In this document: positions 6,230 through 56,345 of the stretch, one piece after another
Layout of the letters: each line of letters opens with the position of its first letter
How positions within the stretch are numbered: position 1 is the first letter of the stretch
Assembly: GCA_024679065.1 (NCBI GenBank)
Contig: JAGIQG010000014.1
Span: forward strand, 45,074,001 to 45,138,000
DNA from: Sphyrna mokarran
Taxonomy: Eukaryota
Length of the DNA stretch: 64,000 nucleotides
Direction of reading: 5' to 3'
Notes under the pieces: generated by a model
Database searches by the model: none
Told to the model about the DNA's origin: nothing
Seen by the model: the letters and a program-made list of their open reading frames with translations, nothing else
Translations under genes and position numbers: made by a program

Positions 6230-6727
6230 GTTGGTATTTGAAGATATGATGCCTGATGGTGCAACTGTAGAAAAAGAACAAGTCCAATTGAAAGACAGTC
6301 GAGATGGATTCAGCTCTACATTTGAAAGAATTGTGGAATCTGATCTTATGAAAGGAACTTCATACAGTAGCCTGGATTCTTTGGATGTATTGTCACTGAC
6401 TGATGAGACAGACAGTTGTATCAGTTTTGAAGCCCCACTCACACCACTGATTCAGCAACGAATTAAGGAAACCCCTGAACTGTTACAGCAGAAACTGGTT
6501 CAGGTTGCTGAGCAGCGAGAAATCCTGGAAGCTAGAGGTAGCGATTACCAGGAATGTCATTCTAAGATGAATGAGGGAAATGTTGAAAGTCCACTGAGAC
6601 ACTCACTCACGAGCAGCAGGTCCGAGAATGTGCTAAGCAGGTCCTCTTTGAAGTCCATGCCAAATGGTTTGCACAACGAGAGAGAAGAACTAGAAGATGA
6701 CATCAACAAGATAGTTAACTCCATTAG
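6230..6727 (+). CDS. psd2: PSD/EFA6 ARF6-GEF (PSD2-like) coding exon A, N-terminal region, 498 nt, phase 2-2
   Basis: Acceptor ...tgataacAG at 6228-6229, donor GTAAAT at 6728. Translates LVFEDMMPDG...DGFSSTFERIVESDLMKGTSYSSLDSLDVLSLTDETDSCISFEAPLTPLIQQR..., matching the conserved GTxYSSLDSLDxLSLTDExDSCxSFEAPLTPLIQQR block I recall from PSD2. Splices in frame to 25615 (AG+C=Ser). Confidence 0.88.
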
Positions 6728-7518: not shown

Positions 7519-8440
7519 TAGGAGCACAAGGCTGAAGAAAGTTGCAGACATAGGATGGGTGAGACAATGAATGATTTATTGATGGGGCAATGATTTTGAA
7601 ATCAGTGTTTCAGAGGATAAAGAACTGATGTGATTGATGAAGATAAGGTTATTAGGATTGTGAGAATTCATATGGGATATAATATGACAGAAGAATTAGA
7701 AAAGGTGGGGGGGAGTGGTGTGCGATTCTCCCAAAAAATTCAAAGTGTTGAATTTGTGTAAAAACTGGAGTAAGACATAGCACATTGGCCCTGCTAAATT
7801 TTCTGAATAGGTGCCAGAGCATGGTGACTCAGGGTTTTCACAGTAACTTCATTGGTGTTAATGTAAGCCTACTTGTGACACTAATAAATAAACTTAAAAC
7901 ACCTCCAGGTCTTTCCAACAATCTCTTGGAGATGTGAAGGATCTCTCAGTCTGTGGCCCATCTGTGCAACAAGGAGGTGGTCAATGTCATGATCAAGAGG
8001 TCAGCAACTATGTGCACAACTACATCGATCAAGACAGTCAGGAGCAATATAACTTAAAGCTCATTTACTGAGTAAAGGAGTAATCTTGAGTCAGTCTTTT
8101 CTGAATGTGGGTTTATTCACAAAATCAGGAAAACCCTGCCATAGTGTCCCTTTTCTTTCCATGCACCACCCCCAGTGGAAACCAAATCTTATATATAATT
8201 AAGAATAATGCCCTAATCTTTCATGAGTTAGTAACATCTGTTCTCACTTATAACTAGAACATGCACTTCATTCTAATAAGATTGCAACAATAACAAAGAG
8301 GACATTCCTTGGACTCAGAGCCGTCATTGGCTCCTCTGAGTGTAGGGTATGATTGATTGTGTGTATGTGACCATAAAAACACTCACGTTCAAAAGAAAGG
8401 GTTTCCATTTGCTCGATGGTCAATTGATGTGCAACTACTA

Positions 8441-9500
8441 GCCCTTATAGGAAGGGGTATAGAGTACAAGAGCTGGCCTTTAATGTTGCAGTTGTATAAA
8501 ACGTTGGTTGGACCTCATTTGGAATACTGCGTCCAGTTCTGGTCGCCTTACTACTGGAAGGATGTGGAGACTCCGGAGAGAGTGCAGAGGAGGTTTACCA
8601 GGATGTTGCCTGGTATGGAAGTTCTGAGTTACGAGGAGAGGTTAGGCAAATTGGGACTGTTTTCCTTAGAAAGATGTAGACTTAGAGGAGATCTAATAGA
8701 AGTGTACAAGATTATGAAGGGTATAGATAGAGTAAACAGGGTTAAGTTTTTTCCTAGGATGGACTCAAATAGCACGAGGAGTCACGGGCTTAGGGTGAGG
8801 GGGGTAAGGTATAATTTGGATGCTAAAGGGAGTTTTTCATACAGAGGGTGGTGGGGGTATGGAATGCGCTACCAAGTAAAGTGGTGGAGGCAGGTACTCT
8901 GGAGTTATTTAAGAAATACATAGATGGGCACATGAACAGAATGGGAATGGAGGGGTATAGAAAACTGATTTAAAATAGGGATCATGAGCCTTGGGAGTCC
9001 GTGGGAAGTGTGTAAATAGTCAATGATATTGATGTACTTGTTTTTATCCTACAGGTGCTTTGGTCCACCTTGTTGTCTTATAAGGGACATACACGCGTTG
9101 GGTCGTGAGAGGGCTGCTCTTGGATTTTTTTTGAGAGTATCCTAGTGCTTCATGTCGTTAGTGTACGCTTAACCTGGACCATTTGATGGGCAACACGACA
9201 GTTCAGTGACTATCGCTGTGCTGTGCAGATACATGGGTTTGGGCCTGTGTCTGTGGGAGTTTGCGCATTCTCCCCATGCTTGTGTGGGTTTTCTCCAGGT
9301 GCTCCGGTTTCTTCCCACATCCCAAAGATGTGGCTAATCTAATTGGCAAAACAAATTCTCCCTAAATTGTCTCAAATTTGGTTTTTAATCCATAGATCTA
9401 TAAACATAGACAGGGATTATGGGTAGAGGTGGGAACATCAGGGTGGCGGCACGGGCTCGTTGGGCCAAAGGGCCTGTTTCCAGTGCTTTTTGTTCTTTGT
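8441..9500 (+). mobile_element. CR1 3' end fused to an internal V-SINE segment (composite, copy A)
   Basis: Open CR1 ORF2 C-terminus LQLYKTLVGPHLEYCVQFWSPY..., a unique spacer, V-domain at ~9185-9345, and a GTTCTTT tail. Confidence 0.85.
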
Positions 9501-25534: not shown

Positions 25535-25810
<276 letters not shown>

Positions 25811-26672: not shown

Positions 26673-27484
26673 TCAGGGATGTAGGGGTACAATATCAAGG
26701 ATAGGACTCTTAGTAGTGTTGAAGAGCAAAAAGACCTTGGGGTCCAGGTCCATAGGACTCTTAAATCGGCCTCGCAGGTAGAGGATGTGGTCAAGAAGAC
26801 GTATGGTGTACTGGCCTTCATTAATCAAGGGATTGAGTTTAGGAGTCGGGAGGTAATGCTGCAACTTTATAAGCTCCTTGTCAGACCCCACTTGGAATAC
26901 TGCGTGCAGTTCTGGTCACCTTATTACAGGAAGGATGTGGAAGCTATTGAGAGAGTGCAGAGGAGATTTATAAGGATGTTGGCTGGATTGGAGGGCATGC
27001 CTTATGAGGAACGGTTGAGGGAGCTAGGTCTCTTCTCCCTGGAGAGACAAAGGTTGAGAGGCGACCTGATAGAGGTTTATAAAATGTTGAGAGGTATAGA
27101 TAGGGTGGATTCTCAGAGGTTACTTCCCAGGGCTGAAATAGTCGCTATGAGAGGACACAAGTTTAAGGTGCTGGGGAGCAGGTACAGAGGAGATGTTAGG
27201 GGTAACTTTTTCCCTCAAGAGACTGTTGAGTGAATGGAATTGGCTGCTGTCGATGGTGGTGGAGGCAAACGTGCTGGAGTCTTTTAAAAGATTTCTGGAT
27301 GAGTACATGAGATTTAATGGGATTGGGAGTTATAGATAGTTCTTGATAGGTATGGATATGATTGGTGCAACTTGCGGGCTGACGGGCCTGTTTGTGCTGT
27401 AATGTTTTATGTTCTATCAGACTTGTTATAAACAGTCAATCATTCATGAATAATTAAATGGCAGAAAATATGTTAATTACACCT
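26673..27484 (+). mobile_element. Young CR1 3' end with the same tail extension as the 4720 copy
   Basis: 148-aa open ORF2 C-terminus (LYKLLVRPHLEYCVQFWSPYYRKD...LRGDLIEVYK); 27110-27484 is the reverse complement of 4739-5108. Confidence 0.9.
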
Positions 27485-29325: not shown

Positions 29326-29406
29326 CAATGATTTCAGTAAGCTGGTGGCCGAAGAATATCTTAGTTTCTTTGATTTCACAGACTTGAATTTGGATAAAGC
29401 ACTTAG
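29326..29406 (+). CDS. psd2: PSD2-like exon C, Sec7 domain, 81 nt (not in ORF track)
   Basis: Polypyrimidine tract ttctttcttttttAG, donor AG|GTGAGC. Encodes (N)NDFSKLVAEEYLSFFDFTDLNLDKAL(R); phases match both neighbours. Confidence 0.95.
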
Positions 29407-33794: not shown

Positions 33795-34067
<273 letters not shown>

Positions 34068-36432: not shown

Positions 36433-37067
36433 AGAAGAATATTAATACCATCAGGATAGAGAGGAAAAAATAATTGACAAACTAACAAACTTGAAAGAGT
36501 ACAATACCCTAAAACACAATGGTATATATCATCAAGGTGATGCTAGACAGAAAATCAGTGATATTGCTGATTGATAACAAAGTGAACCAAATAACACTGA
36601 GGTCATCTTGGAAGAATGTGGTAGACAAACTAGTTTTTAAGGTATCAATTTAATTAATTACTACCACTCCACAACCCTTCAATGTCCTTATTGTATCCTT
36701 CTGGTACCCCTGGATGCTGCAGACATCCACTGGACTGTCACTCTCTTGAGGATGTTCAGTAGCTTGTGTGAAAATTCCTAAAGTGTGTTAGAAATGCAAG
36801 CAATGAATTCCTCTAATTTGTCCACCATCTTAACCACATACTTCAAAAATTATCTCCATTGACTCTATATGAGATCAATATTCTCTTTGTTATTTTTTTG
36901 AAGACCACGCTACTAAAGTCATAGTTACAGTTAGCCTTGGAAAGTAGCACAACTTTGTATGTTACTAAAACATGTGAACATGTCCCATGCTGTGAGCTGA
37001 TTTTAATTCTGCATCAATACCACAAAGTTTGCATTATAGCATTTTATTTCGATGTGCATAATTATAA

Positions 37068-37169
<102 letters not shown>

Positions 37170-37689
37170 TGATTCTCACTCTTCAATAGGAATTACATAA
37201 TAAAAATAAAAATTGTGAAAAAGTACATTTTAATTTCAGCAAAGGGAAATAAATACAACATATTGTTTAAATAAGTTGATCACAATCATTTTTCAGCTGA
37301 CAATTACAAATGATCATTTTTGTTTCATGAAATCTGTGCATTAAAAATATTTTTCAAATTCGTGCATAATTATTTTTCTTCACAGCTCATCCTTGTTTTC
37401 GTTAAATCTAACCTCAGATTGAGAATCAACGTAATTACAAGCATCAATAATAAATGAAATTGTAGACAGAATCTTCTCACTTCAGTTCCTGCAGAAATGG
37501 CAGGATCATTTTTAGATTGGGAAACAACCTCTGATTTGTACAGTTTGTGGTTGCTGTTTCCCAGAGTAAACTAATTCTCCTCCTGCCTTTGGGTTCCAAG
37601 ACCAATCAGGGAGGATGGTCAGGATTATCATGCCTAAAGCAGCAACGAAGGGTATCGATTTAAAGAAAGTGGAGTCCATCCTGAGTATG

Positions 37690-39350
37690 AGTGCCATGAT
37701 GTTTCAGTCATTTGTACTGATAATCACATCATTGATAATGTAGCCTATCTTATGGAGAAGTGCGTCAAGTGTATCTTGGTCCATATCAATTGCCTGCATG
37801 CACTGGTTGACAATCTGCATAACCAGGATCAAAGCACTGCCTTGGTTACTGAACTCGTATGAGCATGTGCATTCATCCACCAGAATTCTTGTGGCAGAGC
37901 AAGGAAGCATGTAGCCTTTCTCTAGCTCAGCTTGCTCTATATAGAAGTAATAGAAAGTACACAAAAATGAGGTCTTAGTTGCACAAAGGGAATAATCTAG
38001 GTACTTATAACATTAGTTCATGAGCACTCCATTGTTTCCCTTTATTTGAATAATTTTTTTTTTGTTAACAAATGATGGCCATGTCCTTACTTTATGGATT
38101 TGCCCAGTGACTGGTCAGTTTAATTTTGATGAATGGCATGAACTGCTTTGATAAGAAAACTAGATGTGAATGGATGGGTGGCTATGATTTGCGGGTGTTA
38201 AGGTGGATTGGAGGTTTACCACAGGGATCATAATTAGAAGTTTTCAATATTCCCAGTACTTCTCAAATCAAGCCTGTTTGAATGAGGGCATTGCGAGTGT
38301 CTCTACAAGTGGATCTTCAGCTGCAAGCTCCAAAAGCACTTTCAGGATGTTCCTTCTCCACCTTTTCATCTTCTGTACAGTGCCATGTTATGAAGGACAC
38401 AGCAACCCGCTACAATCAACGACACCCTTGTTGGGCATATTGAAGGGCACATCCAAAGCAGTCAAGGCATTGTATTCTAATTTAAATTAAACCAGTAGTT
38501 TGCTCTATTATAGTCCTTGAAGTAACTTACCCTGTTATAGCCCTGAATATAAGTGGGTATCGCTTACCTATCAGATTGAGGCTGACTGGAGAGAAAAGCT
38601 GTGAAACATGAGACTACTGAAAGATGAATGAGTTATGGCAGCCCTCTGACTACTTAGCGGATAATTAAATTCTGCTCTTGACAAAGGAGCAGACACTCAT
38701 GCATTTGATAAATAGCCTATCTGTTCTGATTGTGCATTTGTTACCATACAGTGCAGTCAATGACCGCACCCCCACCTCCTATCTGTGGAACTCCTGCAAG
38801 GGACATAAATCCAATAGCCTGTTGGGTTTGGTTCCCTCAACCATCTCAAAGTGAAAATAGTTGGAAGGCCTCATAAGCAAAGCATCTGGCTAATGTAGTT
38901 GTGAGCTGCAGATGATGAGATTCTACATATATCAGTAACTGAACCCTAACAGAACCTGCATGTAAAAAAAAGTTGAGGGCTGTAGTCACCTTGACAGCCA
39001 AGTCAATGATAGCCATTGCTTCTCTTGGCATAAGGTCTGCTTCCAAGAGGTCACCTGCTGCATAAACCTGAGCCTTCAGAGTGTGAAGAACAGAACCCAA
39101 TGATCATCCTCTGTTTCATCCAGTTACATGTGGCTGAAGAGAAGGCAGCTGCTGGCGCTGGCATTGCTACTTTTGTTACTTTGGCAGCTGAGCTGGGAGG
39201 CACACAATACGTCCTCCTCAGAAATCTAACCAACTGTTGAATATGTAGACCCCATGTCACAGGGAACTTTCACGGCCAATAAGATAAGAATAACATCAAG
39301 TGGTATCCAAGACCATTGATCGAAGTTATACGGTGTTGCTGTCCCCATCA
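37690..39350 (-). mobile_element. PIF/Harbinger transposase remnant
   Basis: LAVKVTTALNFF..GS (HARBI1-like VAVKVTAALNF.ASGSFQ) at ~38950-39010; degenerate N.G...L.MQ.V...DA.L segment at 37750-37900. Confidence 0.6.
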
Positions 39351-42300
39351 AAATCTGTGAGTTTAGGCTGAAAGAATTACACTTGCGAGTGGAAATCTTT
39401 TATTTTGACTGACCACAGCCTTGCTTGTTTCGCGCTTTATAATACTGATATCAGATTAGTTTTACACTGATTACTTCCCATTATACACCCACCTTCCACC
39501 AAACGGGAATTGTAAACGCAGCATTTAACTTATGCACTGTTGGGAAAGAAAGGTTCCATGCTTTAAAAGGCTCAATTGTTTCCTGCCAGGTTCTTTGGGT
39601 TCCCCACTGGAATTCCAAGCCATTCCAGGATAAGCTGGGCAAGGACCAGATCACATCGAAATCCTGTACAGACGTCCTCTCTAGGACTTTCCCACCCCTG
39701 AACCTACCTCCAACACGCTGAAAAAATTCTAACCTGTATTTATTTAATAGCCTTAGCTTTTAATAACACTGATGATTTTGAATTAAACATTTTCCTAGAT
39801 GATGGTGCTTTATAGCAACTGTGGAGGTTCATACATAAAGGATGAGATATAATTAGCACTTACTGGGCTAAAATATAGCAACTGTATATTTTCCAAACAG
39901 AACAAATTAACTTGCAGATGAAATCCTGGAATGAGAGTCAGTAAGGGAGAAATTAGGCTGTGTCGCACCCATTTAACAGGCACTAGAAGCCCTCCCAATG
40001 TTCAAACATGGGGTCCAAGGTGTGCAAGCAGCCTGGCATCGAGAAACATGGCATATTTGGTAAAATGGGTTGAACACATGCAATTATCACTGTCAGTAAC
40101 ATGCAAAACAGATTATGTCTTCAGTCAGTCTGCAATGCTGATTTGATCCCAATGCTGCCATTTACAAACTTCGTGTTTCAGTCTAAACCCTGCGCAATCT
40201 TACTGGACACATGTTAAATGGAACGAAGGACTCCCCCTTGTGCATCAGGCCTATTTAAAGGATTATGAACTACTTGCAGGTTGGTTGCTGGATTCTTCCT
40301 GCTTGCTGCTAGTGCAACTGTGCCTGTTTCTGAAGTTTTCCTATTCTTGGTTAATGTTTGAATAGTCGACCAGGAATGGCCTGGCTGGGTACTGAAGTAT
40401 TTATTTATTTTTAAAAATTCTGCTGCCATGAATAACCCGATGGAGTTTTGTTTTGAGAATTAGGCATGACTGACAGAATAAAGAGGGGCTTGTGTAGAGT
40501 GGGACAAGCCATAAGAAATGATGCAGGTGGATGGAGGAAACAGGCCATATCTGCCGAGGGTCTTTAGGAAGAAATTGATATTCACCAATTTTAGTAAGGA
40601 CCAATGCATGAAATGTCTCTGCTTCACAAAATAGATTATAATTGAAATCTGCCAGTTGCTGCAGTCAAGGTTGTCAAGCTGACAGGAGTTCTTAACGTTT
40701 AACGTGTCCTACTCCTTTCAAGGTGACTGCTAGAAATATAAGCAACATCTCACAATTTGCAATAATCCCTGCACAAAAATATCACTGAAGCCCCCTATAC
40801 ACAGAGACAGCTTCATCTCATTCCCTTTTGTCAGAGACAAGCAGGTAGAATGAGCACCAGGGTTTACAGGGATTGCAGGCTTTCTGTGTTTTGAAACCCT
40901 TGCATAGGTCTCAAATAACATTGGCTATTTTCATGATTCAAAGAGATTCCATTTTCCTCAACTCAAAAAGCACACTTCTACATTGAACTGGAAACAATAC
41001 CAACATGTGAGGAAGCTAAGATATGGATATTGGACAGCCGGACAACAAAGGAGAGCTAAAAGCAGAGAAGTTGGTGGGTAAAGACCTAGGCACAAGGAGA
41101 AAGCAGACAGACAGAGGAACACACTGGTTTTTTGTGAGCCAAAGAGGCAAATCTCTCTCATGAAGGAGTCTGTTTATCTGTTTGGCAGAAAAGGAGATGG
41201 GAGCTTTGGAAACATTGTGTGAACTGGCTGAAAAGGTCAAATACTTGGAAAGCTTTGTGAATAGGTCAGAGAGACTGAAAAACTGGATGTTTTCCCAGAA
41301 ATGGTGAAACTGGGAATTAAAGAGTTCCTGGTTGATCAGTTGAAAAATAACTAAAAGCTACATCACCAGGGTTGTTGTGACCCAAGAGCAAGAGGATTTG
41401 CAGAAGTGTGCCTTGCTGATAATAATTGTATCCATGAAACTCTGAGGTGAAAGTTATTGTTAGATGGTATTTCTGATCATGCATGAATAAAGAACAGCAT
41501 ACTGTGGAACTTTTTTGCTACATAGTGCCATGTGTTTTCAGGAAGTGATGCAGTGTTTGTGGTTGTGGTTGTATCTTTATTATCTCAATTATTTAAAGTG
41601 GAATTTACCATTTTAAAATACCATTTGTCTGTTAATTCATGTTTCATTTGTGTTGGTTCCAATTCACGTTAAAGTAGAAGCTACAAAAGATGAAATGTTG
41701 TTGGTAATTTTTTCTTTTGGACTCATTTGGTAAATTTGATTATTTTGTTTTCCTGCTTTCCCATTGGGGAATGATAATACTTGTTCTATATTCTTTGGAT
41801 CTAAAGTGGGTTGCCAACATGTGCTTAAATTGAAATCCATTTGCAACAGTTTCGCCTGTTCGCTGAATCTATCACTATCCCTTTGTAATGTTATGCTTCC
41901 GTCTATGCTGACAATACCACCTGATGTGTGGCTTTCACAAGTTGTTAATAAATAGTTTACTAAATACATGAGGTTCCAACAGAAATCCTTTTTGGACAAC
42001 TTAGTCACATTCTGCCAATTAAAGTACTTACTCATTAACCCTGCTCTCTACTAATTTGCCTTCAATTCCATGATTTTAACTAACAGTCTAATTGAGAGAC
42101 TTTTTCAAATGACTTGGGGAAGTCTATCAGAAGCTGCAACACAATGTATTCCACAATGTGGTAGTGGAGATGACATCTGTTCCACCTGGGAAAGAATGGG
42201 CTTCAAGGTTTTGCAAAGTTTGTGCTGATCCTCTCCTTACTCCTTGAAATTGAACAGATTTTTTTTGGCTTTCCCAATAAACCAAATATTTGATTATAAA

Positions 42301-44542
42301 CATAGATCAGTCTTCGTCTATAGTCTGATCCTTCATCTGACTCTTCTGTGGCTAAACCCTCAGGAGTCAGCACCTGAGCTATCTTTATCCCCTGTCCTGG
42401 TTCCTGCATATTTGTATCCGCTATCTCACCACATGTAGTTTGCAGCTCTGTTCTAGCCATTAAAATCAATGCAACGTCAGTGTCTGAACTGATCCAGTTG
42501 ACAGTACAATCTAACTGTGAGCTTCCCAGTGTTGGGAGGGGTGGATTCAATCGGAAATCCAATTAACAGTGCTGAAACCAGAAGATTGGCCAATGGCGGG
42601 CCGCTTCCACTGCTGAGAAACATGCTAATATGCTGCAGGTGGGAAGAGGGGAAAAGACCCATAGTGTCTGCTAATTTTCACTGTCTTTGTCCTTTTCTTC
42701 ACTGACTGGAAATGTTCTAGCTCTTGGCTATCTGAAATGTAATAGAGACAATGATTTGCTTGTGCCAATGAGAGAGGAGAAAGTGGAACGGCTGTGCTTA
42801 CCTCATCTGCACATTGTAACTTGAAAGAGATTCTGGAGTGAGGGAAAAGTCTGAAGGAAGGAAAATTATGTGTATAGGAACTTTCAGTGGCCATGGCCTC
42901 AGTGATGTACCTTCCCATAATAGCCACACTGTCTCCTTTGATGAGATTTAAAACATGCACCATGCTTGGCAAATTACATCCCTCCATCTTTCCACCTATT
43001 CCACCAAGACCTTAGTGCATTATTTAAAAACTTTTGTCCTTGCTTTCTCCCTTGTTCGGCCATCACTCAAAGCATTATAGCCCAAATTATTTTTTGAAAA
43101 ATATCCATAGTGCACTCTCCTTTAAACAGTGCAGTCTGCTTTTAAGTAGCATTTGTTTCTGAGGCTACAGCTGTTTGTGCAGCCAATGAACAATATGCAG
43201 CAGTGATTTAAAAGAATAGACAGCATTGATTTATCATGCAATGACCAGGTGGTGGCTAATTATACGCTGCAATCTCTTTGCCTGGTTTCAGGAGTTAGTC
43301 AATTTCTTCTCTCTGAAAAAGTCCATTGCACTTGGGGTGTGCTGTCACCTGCAGTGGTGATTCACCCAGGCTGGGATAGAGTAAAGTTTCGGGGTAGCTG
43401 CTGAGCTTAAACCAAAGCTTTACTTGATGCAAAGATGAAGCATCAGATTAAGCCCAGGATGGGGTGCAATGCCTCATCCTGTCGGCTTGGATCTTGTTTG
43501 TCCCTCACATGGCTCCATTAATTGGATTCAATTTGAATTTGGTTTTTTTTAGATGGAATAAAAGTAAGCAGGAAAAAAAGCAAATTTGCCATTAGATTGT
43601 AGAAAATGGCTGCTCCAGATGACACAAATTAATTTGTTGTAGTCTGATATAGACTGTTTTAGAAAGGTAGTGATAATGAATAAATTGAAATAAGGGACAG
43701 AAATTTGCAGCACATCACGTGAAAAGTCAATTGGTAACGCATTCTCCACCACCAGCTCCCCCACCACACACACACACACAATTACAGTAGCACCATAGCT
43801 ATTTAGATGCTGGAGATAGGACTTCCATACTTCACTAAGAGTGCAGATGATGTTGGTGGGGTTCTTGGTAGAGAGGCCAGAGAGAGAGGGAGCAGCTGCA
43901 GAGGTAATATCTTGGGAGGTAGAGCCAAAATGGAAAAGGGTCTTTTAAAGAGATGCTTCTTCCTTCATACCGGAGGCCCAAACAGAGTGACCTGCCAAGC
44001 ATTCTACCTACCCTAAGCTCCTTCCACCAGCCACAAAACTGAGCCCATGGTGCGAAACAGCCCTTAAAGGTAAATAATTGGCAATTAAGGGCATCAATTA
44101 GTGTGAGAATGGATAGTTAGGCTTAGGTCTGGTCCACTTCATGCATAATCTTGGACAGGAGGGTGGCAGAAACGCCACCTGAAAAATTCTATGGGCCCTT
44201 AAAACCTAGGAACATAGGACTTGGAAGCTGGGTAGGCCATTCAGTCCTTTGAGCCAGCTCCACACATCAATAAGATAATGGGTGATTTAGTTTTGGTTTC
44301 ATTCCATTTTGCTGCTTGCCCCTTCATTGAAAAATTGGACTCAGGAGCAATCTTAAGAGCCTGCAAACTCACTAATGGGTGACCAAAACATTCTACCCAA
44401 TATCTGATCAAATATAAATGCTGAAATACATGTTTGGAGCAGAATATGAACCAATACATTTGGTGCATGACTAATTTTTGCTGTGGTATTTCACTAAGAA
44501 CAACCCCCATTTGGATTTGATTCTTAAAAATAATCAGGGAAT

Positions 44543-44850
44543 AGGTGGCCTTGTTGCACAGTGGATAGTGTCCCAGCTTCTGTGTCAGAAGCTCTGGATT
44601 CAAGAACGACTCCAGGACTTGATGGCTAAAGAAGGTACATTCATAACAGGGCCAAATACATTTCAACTTGTCAATGCTCCCAACATATGGCAATGCAGGT
44701 AGTTAAAGCCAGACGGATTCATTGGCAACTGTGTAATAGAAAAAAATTGGAACCTCTCCCATCACTATCCATAGCTTCAGGCAATAATACACATGTGAAA
44801 GTGTACCTTGTCACAGACAGTCGGACTCCTTGGAGTGTCAGTTAGCTAGG
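44543..44850 (+). mobile_element. tRNA-headed SINE of unassigned family
   Basis: ggtggccttgttgcacagtggatagtgtccc..tcagaagctctggattcaag is a tRNA-like A/B box head with no intact cloverleaf. Confidence 0.45.
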
Positions 44851-45638
44851 TGATTGTGTGAATCAGACTGGTGTCAAAAGCATGGGATTATTGGAAATGA
44901 CAGGAGATTTGCTACGTTCAATTTTAGAAAATTTAGGAAAGCAAATTGAATATTGGAATTTATAACCAGAACAATGCTCAATGACTACACTTTGATTCAT
45001 TCTTAGTTTTGGTGGAGGATATAAAAAAAGAAAAATGGGAATGATATCAAGGGTAATGGGGGTAGGCTATAAGGAAACATTAGAAAATATTAAAGTGGAA
45101 AATGTTACAATGCTACTAGATGAAGGTATTAAAAATTGAAACTATATAGGTAAAGTGAACCCAGAATATTACTTCAAGATATGTCAGGCCAATGGGTCAA
45201 GGGGACATCAATGTAATTGTGGAAAATTAAACCAAAACATAAGAAAATTGTATTTCCTTTTATGGGTGATTTCAATTTGCAATCATCTCTCAGTTAAGAG
45301 TGCAATTGAAATAATTTGAATGTTACAAATGCAGTTGAAAGCAAAGCTGGATAAATGGACATATTTATGGTGCAAGCTCCAATAGATCAACTGATATTTT
45401 CAAATCTCTGATCTTATGTTTTTTTTAAATTTTTTTAATCGTTGTTATTAATGTTTTGCAGGATTGGAGGCAGTAGTTTGTAATGTTACCTGCATTTCTC
45501 TAACATATACTTCCAGTATTCTCCCATAAATCTGATGCTTGTAATCTGTTGTGAGCCAAGTGCAGTAGGGAGTATATAACATTGCATTGACATTCTCCAT
45601 TAGACCTGGTAACCGCCACTAGGAGAAATTTAACCAGC

Positions 45639-45840
45639 TGCATGTTAGATACTAATTTTTCTTTTACCTTTGTATCTTTCTGATTTCCTGCGTTGTTCTG
45701 GATCCTATATTTGGTGTCTCAGGTGGTAAGTGTAGTTCTGCTTAGTGCATGATTGTTGAAGTTAATGTAACCATCTGGTTATTTCCATTTCATGAACATT
45801 CATTTCTTCCAAATTCCATAAAATCAATGTATTCCATTTA
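45639..45840 (+). promoter_or_regulatory. Splicing-regulatory cluster around the microexon (branch point, UGC, Rbfox UGCAUG x2, YCAY cluster)
   Basis: TGCATG at 45639-45644 and 45746-45751; TGC at 45689-45691 inside the pyrimidine tract; repeated CCAT/TCAT in 45770-45840. Confidence 0.6.
45723..45725 (+). CDS. psd2: Putative 3-nt alternative microexon (GTG, Val) between exons E and F
   Basis: Branch-point-like TACTAAT 45650-45656, ~70-nt AG-free pyrimidine-rich tract, ctcAG|GTG|GTAAGT. It lies in a phase-0 intron, so inclusion gives DLHGH-V-NIGKK. Confidence 0.75.
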
Positions 45841-47733
45841 ATTTTACTGATAATGAAAAATGCCGTGTTCTGTGACAGTTTAGCTGGGTAGCAGAGAACC
45901 TTTCTATTGAATCACTAGCATGATAGATATATTTCTAATAAAAAAGGATAAGAGAATATGGGGAAAAGATGGGAAGGTGGATTTGAGATCAGGGAGAGAT
46001 CAGCCATGATTTGATTGAATGGCGGAGTAGGTTCATAGGGCTGACTTGGCCTACTTCTGCTCCTAATTCCCATGCCCCATTGATTGTGTTTTTGGTTCTA
46101 GATATTTGGTTGGAAGTGCAAACCAAAGTCATCCACTGAGATTGTGATTTTATCTCTGTGGTGAGATAAAAACCACAAATAAATCATTTACTGGTAAATA
46201 ATACGTTAGGCTAGATTTCTAAACTGTTCCGAAACTCAGCTATGCCACTAGTATACAATTTTAAAGAAAAATAGTATTTCTAGAAAATTCTGCTGTTTTT
46301 ATCTTTTCTTGAGATGCTAGTTATTTTTGAAGACTCTCCCTGAATTGTATTTTAAAGTACTTTTGTTGCTGAATATGTATGTTTTGAGCAATGTTCTTGA
46401 TCATATATGATTCTTTCCACTTGGTAGAAATAGCTATAGCTACTTCAGGCAGTTTTTTTAAAGTTTATGCTCATGAACTAAAACTTTAATTGAGGCAATT
46501 ACTAGGGATTTCAGAGGAACGGAATAAATTAACTTGAATCATAACAGTCTGTATGAATGTATTACTTACTACACAACATTGATCAGTGAGCTACAGCTAT
46601 GTGATTTGTAATGTGCACTTTTAATACAGTAATGTACTTTTTTTTTGCTACTCTCACTTTTTGTTTTGTATGCAGTCTCTACATGTGTCCTCTTTCTTGG
46701 CTATACTTTTATATCTAATAATTATATGAATTCCAAATTTTTTTTTATTTTGCCACAGAATATTTAATGTTGCAGTCAACAATTTAACTGATTTATTCAC
46801 TCATTCATTTTCATTCTCCTGCATGGTGCAATCTCATTGATATTTTAATTAAATTTCATTTGAGAATACATGTAAGAACTATCAGACTCATCGAAATAGC
46901 TGCCATTGTGAAATATTCTACTTAACATTTGCAATTTGGTTGAATATGTGGAATTTAAGTGACGATATATAAATTACCCGTGCAATATTTGTTCTTAGCT
47001 GTGTTTATAAAATTAATTTCTCTAACCTCAACATGTTCTTGTCTTCACCACTATCTTTTCCCAGTGTTACTAAAATTTCCAACAGAAACGGTTAGGCCAA
47101 TGAGCCTAGGCTTCAACTGACACTCTTTTACCTGCCTTCCAACATTTGCAGAAGTGCATTCGAGTCAATTTTCCACTTGGTGCATTTATTGCAAATATTT
47201 GTTTCTCAACTCTAGTGAGCAAAAAAGTCTATCCTCATCATCTGAATGGAGGTTTACTGCTACTCTATAAAGTGTAACCTCACAACTGAAAGTGGTATTT
47301 GCATCCATTGGAAGATAATTTTGTATGGATTTTAAAAATATAATTCCCAATACATTTAATGCATCCTTAACCCTCTAATATTGGCACATAAAAGGGAAAT
47401 GTACTTCGATTAGCATTGCATATAATTAAAACTTGGTTATGTTGAAATGTATACATTTGAAAGTAAAGTTTCCAATTGGAAAATAACTGATAAATTCAAA
47501 ATACTTCAGTTTCATAACATTTTTGAAAAGATTTTTGGTGGTAACCTAACATTTAAGATGATGAATTTCTGCCATGTTAAAAATGGGAATACAAGCACTA
47601 TGATTATGATATTGGACAATTTATTTCCAACACAATTTATCCATCAAATTGGTAGCATAATACAATATTGTGAAAAATACTTTTGGGGAGAAATTTAATG
47701 TTGATATTGGGGGGTCCTGCTGAAATATTGGAT

Positions 47734-47864
47734 ACAGTAAGAAGTCTGACAACATCAGTTTTAAATCCAACCGATTTATTTGATTAAATCAGTTGGATTT
47801 AAAACTGATGTTGTCAGACCTCTTACTGTGTTTACCCCAGTCCAACACCGGCATCTCTACATCA
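47734..47864 (+). mobile_element. Short Penelope fold-back (45-bp arms plus 35-nt tail) with target duplication
   Basis: 47734-47778 pairs with 47785-47829 (2 mismatches); tail gtttaccccagtccaacaccggcatctctacatca; direct repeat gaaatattggat at 47722-47733 and 47865-47876. Confidence 0.82.
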
Positions 47865-50800
47865 GAAATATTGGATGCCATTAATTGTCCACTTAAGGGG
47901 TTCAGTTGGCACTGAGTAGGCCATCCATGAGCTTTCCGACTTCCAATTTAACCATTCCCATCTGCCACTGTCCCGTCCAATAAACACCACCCTCTCTACC
48001 AAATTTGCCTCAGGGGCGGGCATTAAGTGTTCAATTTCTTTGCACTACGTAAAAAGTAGTTTTGCAAATGTTCTATGACTTTAAATTACAAGCATCATAA
48101 TTGCAAAAAGTAATCAAAAGAATAAATGAGCTGGTTAGAATAAGTGTGCAATATGTTCTAGTCATGGTACTTCAGTAAAGGAATATTAATATGATGAATA
48201 AATCATATATCAAAATGCACTAGTCTGATCTCAGGATTCTGAGATTGGGCTCATTAGTTCCACACAATAAACTTCTGGCCTGTTGCTAACAGTTCACTGG
48301 TGGAGAAGGACAAATAATGTGCAGTGCAACTCCTAAAGGTGTTAATTTTTACATAAAGAAGTGTCTGTACTGTGAAAAATATTGTAGTAGAATGGTTAAT
48401 TGTAGCTTTTAGGCAGACCTAAATGGAATTATGTTATTTGTAATGCAGTTTCCATAGTTGACAGCTACAGTTTTTGGACAGATGTTGGGAGCACATTTAG
48501 TGAAGAATTGCAACTAAATGAAATTTAGAGGGATAACCATAGTTGAACAGGGAATGTCATAGGAGTGTAATAAAATTCAGGAAGCCTTTGCAGTACCTTA
48601 AGAACCATCTTTTCTAAGATTTAGCACAGGGAGCTAGAAAGTAAATGAGATCTCCATCTGCAAGATTGCTCCACCAGTTCTCTATATTACTTTCTGAGGT
48701 GGTTGCACAAAAGTTGCCTTCTCCATGCCTGCAAGGAAGAAAAAGCAAACTTCAAACAAGTGCAACCCATTAACATCACTTTTTGTAGCATGGTAACTCC
48801 AAGTTTTCCTGAAGCAGGTGGCACAGTTCCACATCTGCCTTTTCTCTACTTATACTCTGATATGACAGTTCCACATGATCACTGCCTGTGTCCTGTATTA
48901 GAACTTACAGAAATTTTTGGTGGTTTCCTTTTGATATGGCCAACCAGGCTATGTTGCACATGATTATCTCAGAACCTTCATGCAGTGGCTATCTTATTTC
49001 ATGCTGTATCATTTAACATATGACATACTACGGTTGAGGTGTTTCTCAAAGTGTTTGATTTCTGGCTGGACAAGTATTCATCTATTCTGATGGTGTAATT
49101 TGTCTTCTATCTAAATTCCTTTGGGAAGAGGCATCTCTTATGCCTTATTTGTTTACAAAAGTGACAGGTACAGGTGTACAGATTCTGATGAGCATTTTCA
49201 GGTAGCTTGGTTTGGTTGGCATTCTATTCTTGCCCGTACATCTGAAAAGGGAAGTTCTATTGCAGTGGTAGCGATGCAAGGGGAGATATAAACAATACAC
49301 AACAATTAAGACAAAGAGATGTAAAAGATGAAGAAAAGGAAACATTTAAGAAATTATTTTAATTTTATTGTGCCATTTCCATGATCTCCCTGTGAGCTAA
49401 ATTTTTCCAGAAGAGAAGTCCCACTGCCAGAACTAATCATGAGAGCTTACTCTGCTTCAGTGAATTGTAGCACCATGGGTGGCATTGTTCTGATCAATTA
49501 AAGACAGTTGCATGCCTTCCAATCAGAGGGATGGCTGTTCAGCAACACAACTGCCAAGGTATAAGACAATGAAGAGGCCTTGTCCATGGTGAAATAACCT
49601 TCAAGAGAAGTATCTTTGAGCAAGCGGGACCCAGGCAGGGAAGCCCTAGAAGTCAGGAGAAATGGCTCATATACAGATATTGCCATTATAGAGGCGCTGT
49701 CATGACCTCTAGAATACCCAGCAATGGTAGGCCCTCCCAATGCGGGAAAAATGTAAGCAGGTATTGATCCTTAATTGGTCACTTAAGTGTGTCCATGGGT
49801 AGCTGCACCACTGATAATATGCCATGGTAGTGAGAAGACTTAAGATTATCTTCCTAATACCTTCCCACCATTTTCCCAGCTTGCTACAGAAAAAAGTACT
49901 TTGGACGTACCTACACTACATGAAATGCAACATTTCAAGAAGATAGCTCATTACCTTCTCCAGGGCAATATACATTGGTAATAAATGCTGTGCCATTGTT
50001 GCTCACATGTTCAGAACTAAAAATAAAAACAAAGACAAAATTAATATTTCAGTAAATTGTCCATCTGAGTGAGCAGGGTGGTTCCATTGCCACTGGATCT
50101 GTCTACCTGAAACTGGCAAAGCAGACAGTCCAGTGGGGTGGAACTCGTACATTATTTTATCTCAGATGCCTATTTTGTGCTGTTACAATAGTCAACTAGG
50201 AGAAGAGGAACTAGGCTTGAGTGCATTTGTACAATTATATGCTACTAATTATAATTTAAGTACACAAAATGGGGAGATGGTGGCATTGTGTTAATGTCTC
50301 TGAACTAGTAATCCAGATGCTCAGATAAAAGATCCTGGGACATGGAATCACATCCTATCACAGCAGGTGTAAGTTTATGTATCTGAAATATAAAGCTAAC
50401 GTCAGTAATGCCTGTGTCAACAATCATCTTAATGGGCAGAATTTGTTGGAAAAAGAAGTGGGCAGGCATTGAATGGAGCAGGAAGAGAAGGTTTGAGTTT
50501 CTGCCTTTGGGATACTACACCAAATTATCTCGGTGGCAGGTTGGAAGTGGGATGGCGGTGCTGATGGCATGTGGCGAGGAGGTAATTGTAATGGACTTAT
50601 AATGATTACTAATTAAAACACAAGGTTTTGCAATTAAATGCCAAGTAGGCTATTAAGTTGGAGACACATGGGAAACAAAGGCCTTATGTTCATAACTAAT
50701 TAAAGCTGGCATGGAGGAGGCGCGACAGTCTTCAAGGTAGCAGCAGCTGAGTGAGTCATTACTTGGAGGGATTGCAAGAACAGAGCAGAGGAGGCTGAGA

Positions 50801-51909
50801 AGTAACATGGGAAGGATTGACAGTAAGCCAGGGAAGTTCAAGGGTAATTGAGGGTTTGCTAAGGTCAAGGATGATCAAGGGAGGGTTTTCAATGGAAAGT
50901 CTATGGCTATTAAGGGAAAGATGAGAGCAATCGAGGGTGATCAAGGGAAAGTCCAGGGTGGTTGAAAGAGGATTAAGTGTGTACAAGGAAAGCTAATTTC
51001 CTTGTACACACTTGCCTTGAAGTTAATTGAGGGAGGTTTGAGGGTTTTCAGGATAATTGAAAGATGGTTTTGGGTGATAGAGGGAGATGTGTCATGCAGT
51101 CAGCATGACAGAGAAGAGTTTCTTTCAGTCAGCATCACAGTGAAGCAGACAATGAAGAATATCATTCAGTCAGTTCTTGTTGAACAAAGAAGAGTCACAT
51201 CCCAGGAAAACCATAAGTTCATTGGTTGGTAAGAAACTGTGGTTAAGGATTGTCTATAAATTGTTGTAAATTAGAAAAGAATATATACTTTCAGCAAATA
51301 GCTGTACTTAGATCTAACTGAGAAAGTTAGGGCCAAAATAATAACTAACAAAAATGTCTCCATGAGGTCTCCAAAGCCTTAAGACATGAGGAGAGGTGAT
51401 CTTATCAAACAATTCTAAGTCCAGGATGGGCAGGAAAATGGGAAAGTTGCTCACCCGTTTTTTTGGGTGAGTTCAAATCCCAAATCATATGCACTTAGTA
51501 CATAATGGGCTAACCATTCCTTAACTGTAGGTGAATGGGATGGGGCTTAAATCGCCAGCCAACCTGTTATAGCAACAGAGGGCACTATTGTGCATTTACA
51601 GTGACCCAACACAGCCACTCCCTTTCCCCTGCTATCATGAGAACCTGTAAGAGACTGTGAGCACTACACTGCCCAGAAATAGACCAAGAGACAACCACAC
51701 CCTTGTCATTGACCTTGCCAGGGGTTGGGGGACTTCAATAGTCTCCAGTCTATCATTGAGGTAGTCATGATTGTTCACTGTTCATAGGGGTCAGGTGTTT
51801 TCTTTGCCGGGATGAGCCTCTCCTGGTGAGGCCACAAAGGCAAATGAGTTCGGACAATTGCGTCCTAGGCCCATTAAACCCAGGTAAAAGACATTTTACA
51901 TCTATTTAA

Positions 51910-53450
51910 GAACATAAGAACATGGACAAGAGTAGGCTATCTGGCCCTTCGAGCCTGCTCCACCATTCAATAAGATCATGGCTGATCTTTTCATGGACTC
52001 AGCTCCACTTAGTTGCCCACTCACCATAATCTTTAATTCCTTTACTGTTCAAAAATATACGTATCCTTGCTTAAAAACATTCAATGAGGTAGCTTCAACT
52101 GCTTCACTGGGCAGAGAATTCCACAAATTCACAATACTTTGGGTGAAGATGTTCCTCCTTGACTTAGTCCTAAACCAGCTCCCCCTTATTTTGAGGCTAT
52201 GTTCCATGGTTCTAGTTTCACCTGGCAGTGAAAACAACATCCCTGCTTCTACCTTATCTATTCCCTTCATAATTTCCTTCATGAAAGAGAGGGCTGAAGG
52301 ATGGGTTGTAAATTTGCTGATGACACCAAGATTGGTGGAGTAATTGATGGAGTGATGATGTGGAAGGCTCTTGTAGGCTGCAAGGAAACATTGATAAGAT
52401 GCAGAGCTTGGCAGAAAAGTGGCAGATGGAGTTTAACCCTGATAAGTGCAAGTGATTCATTTTGGTAGGACAAACTTGAATGCAGATTACAGGGTCAACG
52501 GCAGGAAGAGCAGAGAGATCTTGGACTTCATATCCACTCAAGTGGATAGAGCTGTGAAAAAGGCTTATAGTGTGTTAATGTTTATTAACAGGGAGGTTTG
52601 AGTTTAAGAGCTATGGGGTTCTGCTGCAACTATACCGGACCTTGGTGAGAACACATTTGAAATATTGTGTGCAGTTCTGGTCACTTCACTATAAGAAGGA
52701 TGTGGAAGCACTGGAGAGAGTGCAGAGGAGATTTACCAGGATGCTGCCAGGTTTGGAGGGTAAGTCTTAGGAGGAAAGGTTGAGGGAACTGGGGCTTTTC
52801 TCTTTGGAGAGGGGGAGGATGAGAGGCAACTTAGTAGAGTTTTATAAGATGATGAGGGGGATAACTAGAGTGGACGGTCAGAGACTATTTCTTCGGGTAG
52901 ATGTAGCTGTTACTAAGGGGCATAACTATAAGATTCATGGTGGGAGATATAGGAGGGATATCCGAGGTAGATTTTTTACTCAGGGAGTGGTTGGGGTGTG
53001 GAGTGCACAGCCTGCTGTGATATTGGAGTCGGACACTTTAGGAACTTCAAGCGGTTATTGGATAGGCAATGGAGCTTACTAGAATGATAGAGAGTGAAAT
53101 AGCTTGATCTTGGGTTTGGACATAACATGGCACAATACTGAGAGCCAAAAGGCCTGTACTGTGCTGTATTGTTCCATGTTCTAATATTATATATTTTTAT
53201 AAGATCTCCCCCCATTCTTCTGAATTCCAATGAGTATAACCCCAGTCTACTCGGTCTCTCCTTATAAGCCAACTCTCTCAACTCAGAATCAACCTAGTGA
53301 ATCTCCTCTACACCTTTTCTAATGCCAGTATATCTTTTGTCAAGTCAGGAGACCAAAACTGCGCACAGTACTCCAGGTGTGGCCTCCCACTATCTTATAC
53401 AGTTGCAACATTATCTTGCTGTTTTTGAACTCCATCCCTCTAGCAATGAA
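51910..53450. mobile_element. Nested CR1s: a + strand CR1 (~52285-53182) inside a - strand CR1
   Basis: Reverse CR1 breaks at ttcccttcataattt (52275) and resumes at ~53185; the insert has KFADDT and RELGLFSLERGRMRG motifs and its own tail. Confidence 0.85.
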
Positions 53451-54989
53451 TAAATGAATAAATTATTCAGCTTGTTACTGGAAATGGGTGAGAGGGTGGT
53501 CGCGCTGGTTATCTGGTGTCGGTAAGATCATGAGAAGTGAGAAATGACCCTCCCATCCAGAAGCAATTGTGGCACAAATGGCCAGTTTGTAGCCTGTGCC
53601 TGCTGCCTTTGACAGTTCACCATTCTGAGGCGATGTACAGAGCATGAATTTGCTTGGGCAGGATTCTATCTGAGTTCCCACTTGCTGTTATTCCACAGTG
53701 ATTTTATGCTGGGGCAGGCAAGGCCTCAGATTGGAATCTTATCTTTATCCCAGTTAAGGCCCTAAGTGCCCAATTAATGATCACTTCAAGTCTGTTTCTT
53801 GCCTAGCCTCAATTTTTAGGTTGGCAGGCAAATACAGTTTAAGGGGAGAAACTGAAAATAAGCAATGTTAGATCTTGGACAAGAAGGGGGCTGGATGACT
53901 GCCTCTATCTGACTGGAAGCCCCCCCCTCTTAAAACTGCTGAGCCAGTGACCTCTGCACAGCAACACCACCCCCTCTCCAACTTCCCCAATTCCCCAGCT
54001 CTCAACCTATTCGCCGACCTTTATTTTTGGAGGGAGGGTCATAAAATCATTGACGTAGATTGATTCTGGGATTTGGTGCAGTTGGGGCACCAGATTCTTC
54101 TGCTTCCATCTTGGAATCCGTATCCTTATTATCTGAAGGGGCAGCTGTCGAGTCAACTTTAAGTGGTAGCCTGACACTGGCAGCAGCCGTCTCCATGGCT
54201 AATAACAAGGCCTATACTAGCGCAGATTCCTTAATTCTATGTGCTTCCTCACAACTTTGCTCTGCACTTTTACATTATAAGACATTATAATGCTCATATT
54301 CTCTGTTATGATCCCAGTTACTTAACCGAGACTATTTCTGAAGTTCCCCATGTGAACCAGATCGCCGATTTTGAACTTTTCGTTCCGTCCTTGCAGAATT
54401 ATGATTATTATTCTGGTTCTCCTGATGCCCATTCAGAAATACCTGAGCCCTCAGAAGGTTTACCAGATTTTATAGGGGGTTTTCATTAGCCATGTTCACA
54501 TTTCTCTGGGTAAGAGTGGTTAAAATAACTCCCTGAATTTAAAAAATAAAATCTGGAGAGAATTATAGTGAATGCTACCTTCAGCCTTTCATTTTCAATA
54601 CTATAATATTGTCATTAGTCATGCCCCAGATCCTTTGCCTTTGAATTCTTCATCTCTTTTCAAAATTTTACAGTCGGAATATTCAGTTCTCAGCACTTCC
54701 CTTACTGGAGCCAAATTTCTGCCAAAACTATGGCATTATGCCTCGTCTTAGTTGGTTTCACTGTTATCCAATTTTATTCCTAATGCTTCAGGCATGCATC
54801 CATGGACACTTCAGTCCTATCTCATATTATTCCTTATTACTTTTATCCCATCTAGTTTTGTCTGTTTTTCTACTTTTATCTTTGCATCTCTACTTAATGT
54901 CTTTCCATCTGCCCTCAGGTAAGTCTTACTTATTATGGAAGTTTATAATCAGAAAGTTTCTAATTTCACTGTAACTCCTTTTGTTTTAA

Positions 54990-55211
<222 letters not shown>

Positions 55212-55224
55212 TGATACAATAATA

Positions 55225-56345
55225 GCTCAATCACCTCTTCTAACAGTTGTCCAGCAGGATGGAACACTCCTGGTTTTGTTCTCATTTGTCTATTCATAAT
55301 ATACGAGTCACTTGCAATGGCTTTTCTTCCCACTCTCTGACTCTTGCTTCTGGTGTCTCCCAAGGATCTATCCTTAGCTGACTCCTATTTCCTATATTTA
55401 TGCCTCTCATCAATACCATCTGAAATCACCATTTCAATTTTACCACTTGTGACATGCAGCTCCAACTTACTACCAGCTCTCTGAACCCATCAATTATCCC
55501 TAAATTGTCAGCACCCAGTAATGGATGAGCAAAAGTATCGCCCAATTAAATATTGGGAAGATTAAAGCCATTCATTCCTGCATAAGTGCCATTCCCTGAC
55601 CAACAGCTTCATCCCTCTTTCTGGCAACTGTGAGGGAAAGAGGGGCAAGATGGGGCGGGAGAGGTTGCGGATGTTCGGCAATGTGGGATGCTGTTTCAGA
55701 TGGTTGGTGCAGACCTGATGGGCCAAATGGCCCCCTTCTCCACTGTGGGGATTCTATGATCACATATTGATGTTTTTATTGAGACCGCTTATATCCGTCT
55801 TTATATCATTGTTTGATTCTGCCCCTACATTGGCTGATCTGCTGCTTAAATTCTTTGCTACCTCTAGACAGTACTATTCTAACCAGAGGCTTGGGTGGCC
55901 TATGCTCTATCCTCCATTATTAGAAACTAGCCAAAAATCTCTCATCAGTCCTGTTCTCTCATCACACTTATGTTGCCTGTTAAGCATCACCTTGATTTTA
56001 AAATTCTTATTCCTGTTTTCAAATCTCTTCTTGGCTCTCGATCCTGTACCTATTTCTGTATTCTCCTCTAGCCCAATGATAGTTCAAAATATTTGCATTC
56101 TTGCAATTCTGGTCTCTTATAATTATTATATCATTGATAGCTATGCTTTCAGCTGCTACAGCATGATGCTGTGTAATTCCCTCCCTAAAGCCTCTTTTCT
56201 TCTCTTTCTTTCCTTAAGCTTTTCCTAAAAACATACCACTTGGACCAAACTTCTGATTATCTGATCTTGTATCCTCTTTTGTGTCTTGTTATCAAATTTT
56301 GTTTGATTATGTTTCTGTGAAGCCCTTTGGGATGTTTTACCATGA
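55225..56345 (+). mobile_element. Decayed L2 LINE with an inserted V-SINE tail (~55640-55760)
   Basis: cttctggtgtctcccaaggatctatcctt (SGV.QGSIL), taaatattgggaag, and an L2-type 3' end tgtgaagc.ctttgggatgttttac. Confidence 0.72.

Follow-up and report, generated by a model that had tools for sequence, protein, structure and literature searches.

The closest described relatives of the exon considered here are catalogued events in the same gene. In the supplement of PMC12626424, zebrafish psd2 carries DreEX0058791, 3 nt long and of class MIC_Neural, with a PSI of 84.65 in neural tissue, 45.13 in endocrine pancreas, 18.37 in muscle and 4.47 in immune tissue, 0 in seven tissues and no value in two; in development its PSI is 0 at 16 hpf and 70-91 from 48 hpf, and in srrm3/4 (eMIC) mutants its dPSI reaches -19.84 in the lowest of three comparisons, past the -15 threshold of that study (PMC12626424). 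Its human orthologue, HsaEX0050530, lacks coverage in that analysis (PMC12626424) and is listed in the supplement of PMC7935315 with a PSI of 90.92 in day-50 human neurons versus 47.38 in progenitors, values at odds with the preliminary description of the present locus, in which human PSD2 had been said to lack the exon. A further row, HsaEX0050538 (16.28 in neurons, 0 in progenitors), is given without gene or length and may be a PSD3 event. The zebrafish event stands in tables only: the main text of PMC12626424 never mentions psd2, and the table, which omits the sequence, states coordinates and length, so that identity with the shark Val site is inferred from the gene, the length and a carp isoform pair. 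Because Val is the only one-residue difference between carp PSD2 X1 and X2, DreEX0058791 is very likely the orthologue of the shark exon.

A second 3-nt microexon is known from ARF-GEFs of the same Sec7-PH type. Cytohesin-1/2/3 contain a glycine microexon in the PH domain that switches between PI(4,5)P2 and PI(3,4,5)P3 binding, and non-neural cell lines include this exon (PMC6314551). Both exons are in frame, but that of PSD2 adds Val to the Sec7 domain, whereas that of the cytohesins adds Gly to the PH domain and governs lipid choice; the parallel drawn in the preliminary description fails on this point, and the PSD2 exon, not being a Gly insertion in a PH domain, is not a cytohesin-type lipid-switch microexon.

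We analysed a 64-kb stretch of shark DNA (the window), in which a phase-0 PSD2 intron of 17,967 nt (37143-55109) contains the candidate exon (Table 1). All that had been claimed from the raw sequence is present, namely TACTAAT, an AG-free tract with TGC, CAG/GTG/GTAAGT, TGCATG at +20 and a YCAY cluster, and re-reading revealed an additional TGCATG upstream (45639-45644). The AG-free zone before the acceptor measures 72 nt, its pyrimidine content is only 63-68% over the final 30-40 nt, a single TGC lies 34 nt upstream of the exon between branch point and AG, and seven YCAY motifs occur within 200 nt downstream. We take the TGCATG copies (45639, 45746) to be Rbfox-type motifs and the YCAY cluster to be Nova-type, and TACTAAT at 45650-45656 presumably also fits the QKI motif. 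For Rbfox and Nova the evidence is the presence of these motifs, the literature having yielded no binding or knock-out data for the exon.

Table 1. Positions of the microexon, its candidate splicing signals, the PSD2 coding exons of the window and the PSD3 counterpart
Feature	Position	Strand	Remarks
3-nt microexon GTG (Val), phase 0-0	45723..45725	+	between DLHGH and NIGKK, PSD2 Sec7 domain; read as CAG/GTG/GTAAGT
Consensus branch point TACTAAT	45650..45656	+	~70 nt 5' of acceptor; likely branch point
AG-free pyrimidine-rich stretch	45657..45722	+	one TGC at 45689-45691; ends in acceptor CAG (45722)
Consensus donor GTAAGT	45726..45731	+	sequence
TGCATG, upstream	45639..45644	+	5 nt before branch point TACTAAT
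TGCATG, downstream	45746..45751	+	20 nt past exon
Six YCAY motifs	45771..45837	+	+46 to +109; seventh YCAY at +187
PSD2 coding exon, N-terminal region	6230..6727	+	spliced alignment
PSD2 coding exon, start of Sec7 region	25615..25809	+	spliced alignment
PSD2 coding exon	29326..29406	+	spliced alignment
PSD2 exon with Sec7 motif 1 (GETQE)	33920..34032	+	glutamic finger by alignment to cytohesins
Upstream PSD2 exon, Sec7 motif 2 helix ending LLNTDLHGH	37084..37142	+	sequence, splicing
Downstream PSD2 exon starting NIGKK	55110..55199	+	sequence, splicing
PSD3 counterpart TAG/GCG/GTAAGT, exon GCG (Ala)	C1:165248497-165248499 (L002:2698-2700)		equivalent PSD3 intron of same genome

Such a layout is rare by chance. 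Across 500 order-3 Markov copies of the intron, searched with filters picked after the site was seen, bare YAG-NNN-GTRAG arose 1.02 times per simulated intron, 0.028 times when an AG-free zone of at least 50 nt was added and 0.012 times with 60% pyrimidine as well, and adding TACTAAY to these post hoc filters left 0 hits in the 500 simulations. The window itself holds seven YAG-NNN-GTRAG patterns (five on the + strand, two on the -), of which only the PSD2 microexon site passes the filters, and the sole genome match of the 251-nt region around it is itself. We therefore regard the observation as confirmed at the level of genomic sequence, at which GTG at 45723-45725 reads as a real site of a 3-nt exon. 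The same intron also contains an inverted repeat at 47734-47829 (45-nt arms, 96% complementary, 6-nt spacer), which falls in a bin of extremely high aligned-contig depth and is likely a high-copy MITE-type repeat.

The six ordinary PSD2 coding exons of the window are all AG/GT-ended and splice into 345 stop-free residues, 334 of them identical to a Mustelus PSD2-like protein (P0082) that lies in the PSD2 clade of a 25-protein tree with 100/100 support. With the microexon the product has 346 residues; both splice forms are in frame, the inclusion form aligning gap-free to Stegostoma isoform X1 and the skipped form to X2. By alignment and phylogeny, the host gene is the shark PSD2 (EFA6C) orthologue rather than PSD1, PSD3 or PSD4, and three further paralogues were assigned by sequence elsewhere in the genome, PSD3/psd3l on C1, PSD1 on C905 and PSD4 on C894. 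Of the Sec7 domain, PH domain and coiled coil expected in that order in a PSD2 orthologue, Sec7 motifs 1 and 2 lie within the window, and exons beyond P0082 residue 554 were not found in its 64 kb. Three stop-free frames of the window (8357-8920, 26685-27230 and 52771-53079) resemble the 3'-terminal part of reverse transcriptases from CR1/L2-type LINEs.

Protein models of relatives carry the same alternative residue. Six of eight PSD2 isoform pairs (Rhinoraja, Mobula hypostoma, Chiloscyllium punctatum, C. plagiosum, Stegostoma and carp) differ by Val alone, the other two by V plus other segments, and gar supplies a seventh pair differing solely by this V, for a total of five cartilaginous fishes, gar and carp. 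RefSeq chondrichthyan PSD2 X1 and X2 (for example Stegostoma XP_059506686 and XP_048399671), which are automatic models without tissue or function information, are exactly this Val apart. The junction reads GH in 93 and GHV in 10 of a first set of 120 proteins, the upstream exon being missing in 17, and among 618 proteins, which are not independent of one another, it reads HV in 32 (21 PSD2, 11 PSD3) and HA in none. These isoform pairs bear out the proposal of a 3-nt Val microexon in PSD2, and the check for conservation found the same Val junction in PSD2 models of other chondrichthyans. The expectation that gene predictors would miss the exon has to be abandoned: a +V PSD2 model exists for 6 of the 16 chondrichthyan species examined (V-less records only in 9, junction missing in 1), so annotation often catches it. 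Contigs of four sequencing runs that match 36900-55400 are repeat-derived or genomic, with no exon-exon joint among the matches listed; a contig from one relative's run spans the site, and the 40 of its 1,680 differences that are listed include none from 45600-45850, which leaves conservation there unreadable.

The exon is already known, apparently in identical form in catalogues for zebrafish and human and also in shark gene models, and since those catalogues are public its existence is no surprise. Other compilations list no microexon of PSD, PSD2 or PSD3 in the supplementary files consulted, namely those of PMC7821500 (8 files), PMC9303857 (12 of 18), PMC12056172 (3), PMC4317164 (4 of 5) and PMC12626420 (12 of 13); the cytohesin-2 control term is likewise absent from the last three, so those blanks say little. 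In literature outside subscription journals, where for instance the first microexon survey and a study of EFA6D isoforms appeared, we found no paper on the function of the exon or of its PSD3 counterpart, and further supplements, including those on bioRxiv, may list both. What the window adds is depth, in the form of a shark copy whose regulatory layout is intact and of its match in PSD3, and the paralogue comparison is the freshest part of the analysis.

How the exon is regulated can be approached from the class to which the zebrafish event belongs. Microexons dependent on SRRM3/4 are marked by a strong donor, by a long distance from the AG to the branch point and pyrimidine tract, and by UGC between branch point and AG (10.1101/2024.09.17.613571). 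The shark site shares with them a length within 3-27 nt, preservation of frame, canonical AG/GT ends, a GTAAGT donor, TACTAAT about 70 nt upstream, the 72-nt AG-free zone and the TGC at -34, and its gene shares their tendency to reside in GTPase-regulator genes (PMC12626424). Like the VastDB events DreEX0058791 and HsaEX0050530, it is a 3-nt, mid-intron cassette in the same gene, those events being neuron-enriched; unlike them, the shark copy sits in an 18-kb intron and is known here from genomic sequence alone. Neural regulation of the SRRM3/4 type, as first suggested, holds for zebrafish, where inclusion is neural, and holds partly for the factors themselves, the dPSI of -19.84 placing the zebrafish exon at the weak end of the eMIC class.

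We consider it probable, and hold with reasonable confidence, that GTG at 45723-45725 is a PSD2 cassette exon, one that is likely spliced in by neurons and left out by other cells, with ARF6 exchange predicted to be fine-tuned as a result. Given a strong branch point far upstream, an extended AG-free zone containing UGC and a consensus donor, SRRM3/4 would be able to define the exon, a splicing step measured in zebrafish and human and presumed for the shark, and other neuronal factors likely help, as loss of srrm3/4 lowers zebrafish inclusion by only 20 points. In the skipped form the loop would be as long as in every cytohesin Sec7 domain solved so far, the neuronal form would gain a residue immediately behind the invariant LNTDLH of Sec7 motif 2, and the added Val is predicted to adjust ARF6 exchange in neurons finely and not to shut it down. 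This reading is weakened by the modest srrm3/4 dependence, by a TGC as far as 34 nt from the exon, by PSD2 and PSD3 flanks that can be aligned at the motifs only and by the Ala, not Val, of PSD3; the mild phenotype of Psd2-null mice (PMC6522047) also counts against it.

The position of the residue in the Sec7 domain frames what it may do. Sec7 and ARF6 are a textbook pair, and in ARNO-ARF1 structures the switch regions of ARF are faced by helix H and the following loop. Aligned with Sec7 chains of cytohesin and ARNO, the skipped form needs no gap; inclusion of Val introduces a gap of one residue two positions past LNTDLH. Within L159-H165, none of six positions (L, L, N, D, L, H) varies among 121 homologues; the loop from there to the next invariant Met spans 7 residues in 99 of them, 8 in 16 (10 with V) and 9 in 3, and therefore tolerates changes in length. 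No PSD or EFA6 Sec7 structure was found in the PDB copy searched, and no loop contact residues are given in the available portions of PMC6724685, PMC3769224 and PMC10547916. An AlphaFold2 model built from 11 sequences, which put Val just after a helix (288-305), was set aside for its mean pLDDT of 42, below 50 around Val.

The main rival to ARF6 tuning accepts a neuronal exon and has Val acting through a Sec7 partner or a membrane contact, for example endophilin, or being nearly neutral, an alternative that we rate as possible yet distinctly the less probable. It draws on the variable loop length among homologues, on the residue being Val in PSD2 and Ala in this genome's PSD3, and on the report that direct endophilin binding raises EFA6 activity (PMC6724607). 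It fits poorly with the retention of Val in PSD2 of sharks, rays, gar and teleosts, with the excess of HV over HA at the junction (32 to 0 among 618 proteins) and with the location of Val two residues after six invariant motif-2 positions.

Comparison of the introns across PSD paralogues yielded a matching site in PSD3, in the same intron, which there measures 11,678 nt (Table 1). The PSD3 site has an AG-free zone of 109 nt, a TACTAAC branch point and four TGC within 31 nt of the exon; about 120 nt before the exon, TGCATG precedes TACTAAC by 3 nt, as against 5 nt before TACTAAT in PSD2, no TGCATG occurs in the 200 nt downstream, and the flanks of the two sites can be aligned at the motifs only. 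Its GCG codon reflects a change in this species, an assembly error, or an Ala masked elsewhere by modelling on a GTG donor. A +V form is found in 11 PSD3 proteins, from two catsharks, gar, tarpon and two frogs; the mammalian PSD3 isoforms with Val that had been proposed earlier did not materialise, with 0 mammalian cases among 119 PSD3 proteins gathered with a V-less query as cluster representatives.

A matching site in PSD3 indicates an origin in early vertebrate gene duplication, and by sequence the two sites likely share an origin that predates the separation of PSD2 from PSD3. That the two microexons arose independently in the same intron we judge improbable, even though the flanks do not align beyond the motifs, YAG-NNN-GTRAG is absent from the equivalent PSD1 (5,506 nt) and PSD4 (1,551 nt) introns of this genome, +V is absent from 34 PSD1-type, 17 lamprey-type and 71 other proteins (PSD4 and invertebrate ones included), and the 25-protein tree, which resolves the four paralogue groups at 99-100 bootstrap, does not recover their order. 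PSD2 and PSD3 have in common the intron, the exon length, the donor and a TGCATG 3-5 nt before TACTAAY, Val recurs in PSD3 of catsharks, gar, tarpon and two frogs, and a site of this kind is expected in ~1% or fewer of random introns this size. [quoted passage not shown] The preliminary claim of an origin before the whole PSD paralogue split is likely to hold for PSD2 and PSD3 and finds no echo in the PSD1 and PSD4 introns or the lamprey proteins; presence in PSD1, PSD4 or cyclostome genes, which would mark an origin before all four paralogues, was not seen, though the exon may have been lost there.

Taken furthest, these results allow a tentative and rather doubtful proposal, that a one-residue Sec7 switch predating the PSD2/PSD3 duplication, and retained in both genes together with its branch-point layout, alters the rate or selectivity with which EFA6C and EFA6D load ARF6 with GTP in neurons. 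Were this so, it would be the first microexon acting on the catalytic rather than the lipid-binding domain of an ARF-GEF, and this shark's PSD3 would be a natural Val-to-Ala variant. The microexon offers a minimal and cheap test of whether one neuronal residue tunes a Sec7 enzyme, a question that no paper we found addresses.

It is very improbable that the extra V of the database proteins is artificial, produced by gene models that run the upstream exon 3 nt too far. The intron after that exon does open with GTA in PSD2 or GTG in PSD3, both Val codons, so that such an overrun would give the same residue and in PSD3 could make an exon for Ala look like one for Val, and models with read-through are on record (GHVC in P0181). 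Those 3 nt, however, are not followed by GT, which leaves the overrun without a canonical donor; in zebrafish, 3.9 kb separate the 3-nt exon from the upstream exon and 4.9 kb from the downstream one (PMC12626424), and the window holds a complete, unique mid-intron site.

Several minor features accompany these results. One-residue isoform pairs of lamprey and sea urchin were rejected as counterparts of the Val exon, as the difference sits elsewhere in the protein; in the four lamprey PSD pairs (P0473/P0474, P0475/P0478, P0479/P0486 and P0482/P0484) it is one Ser upstream of Sec7, likely from a tandem acceptor. In Holothuria EFA6 the loop is one residue longer (GKK before NIGKK; KK) in all three records (P0384, P0487, P0488). 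The TGCATG and TACTAAY pair of PSD2 and PSD3 is possibly an ancient Rbfox/branch-point (or QKI) module. Finally, Chiloscyllium psd3l of two bamboo sharks (P0123, P0212, P0222) has a 16-residue insert at the PSD3 junction instead of Val, four residues of which weakly match this genome's PSD3 intron about 60 nt past the microexon (E 0.047).
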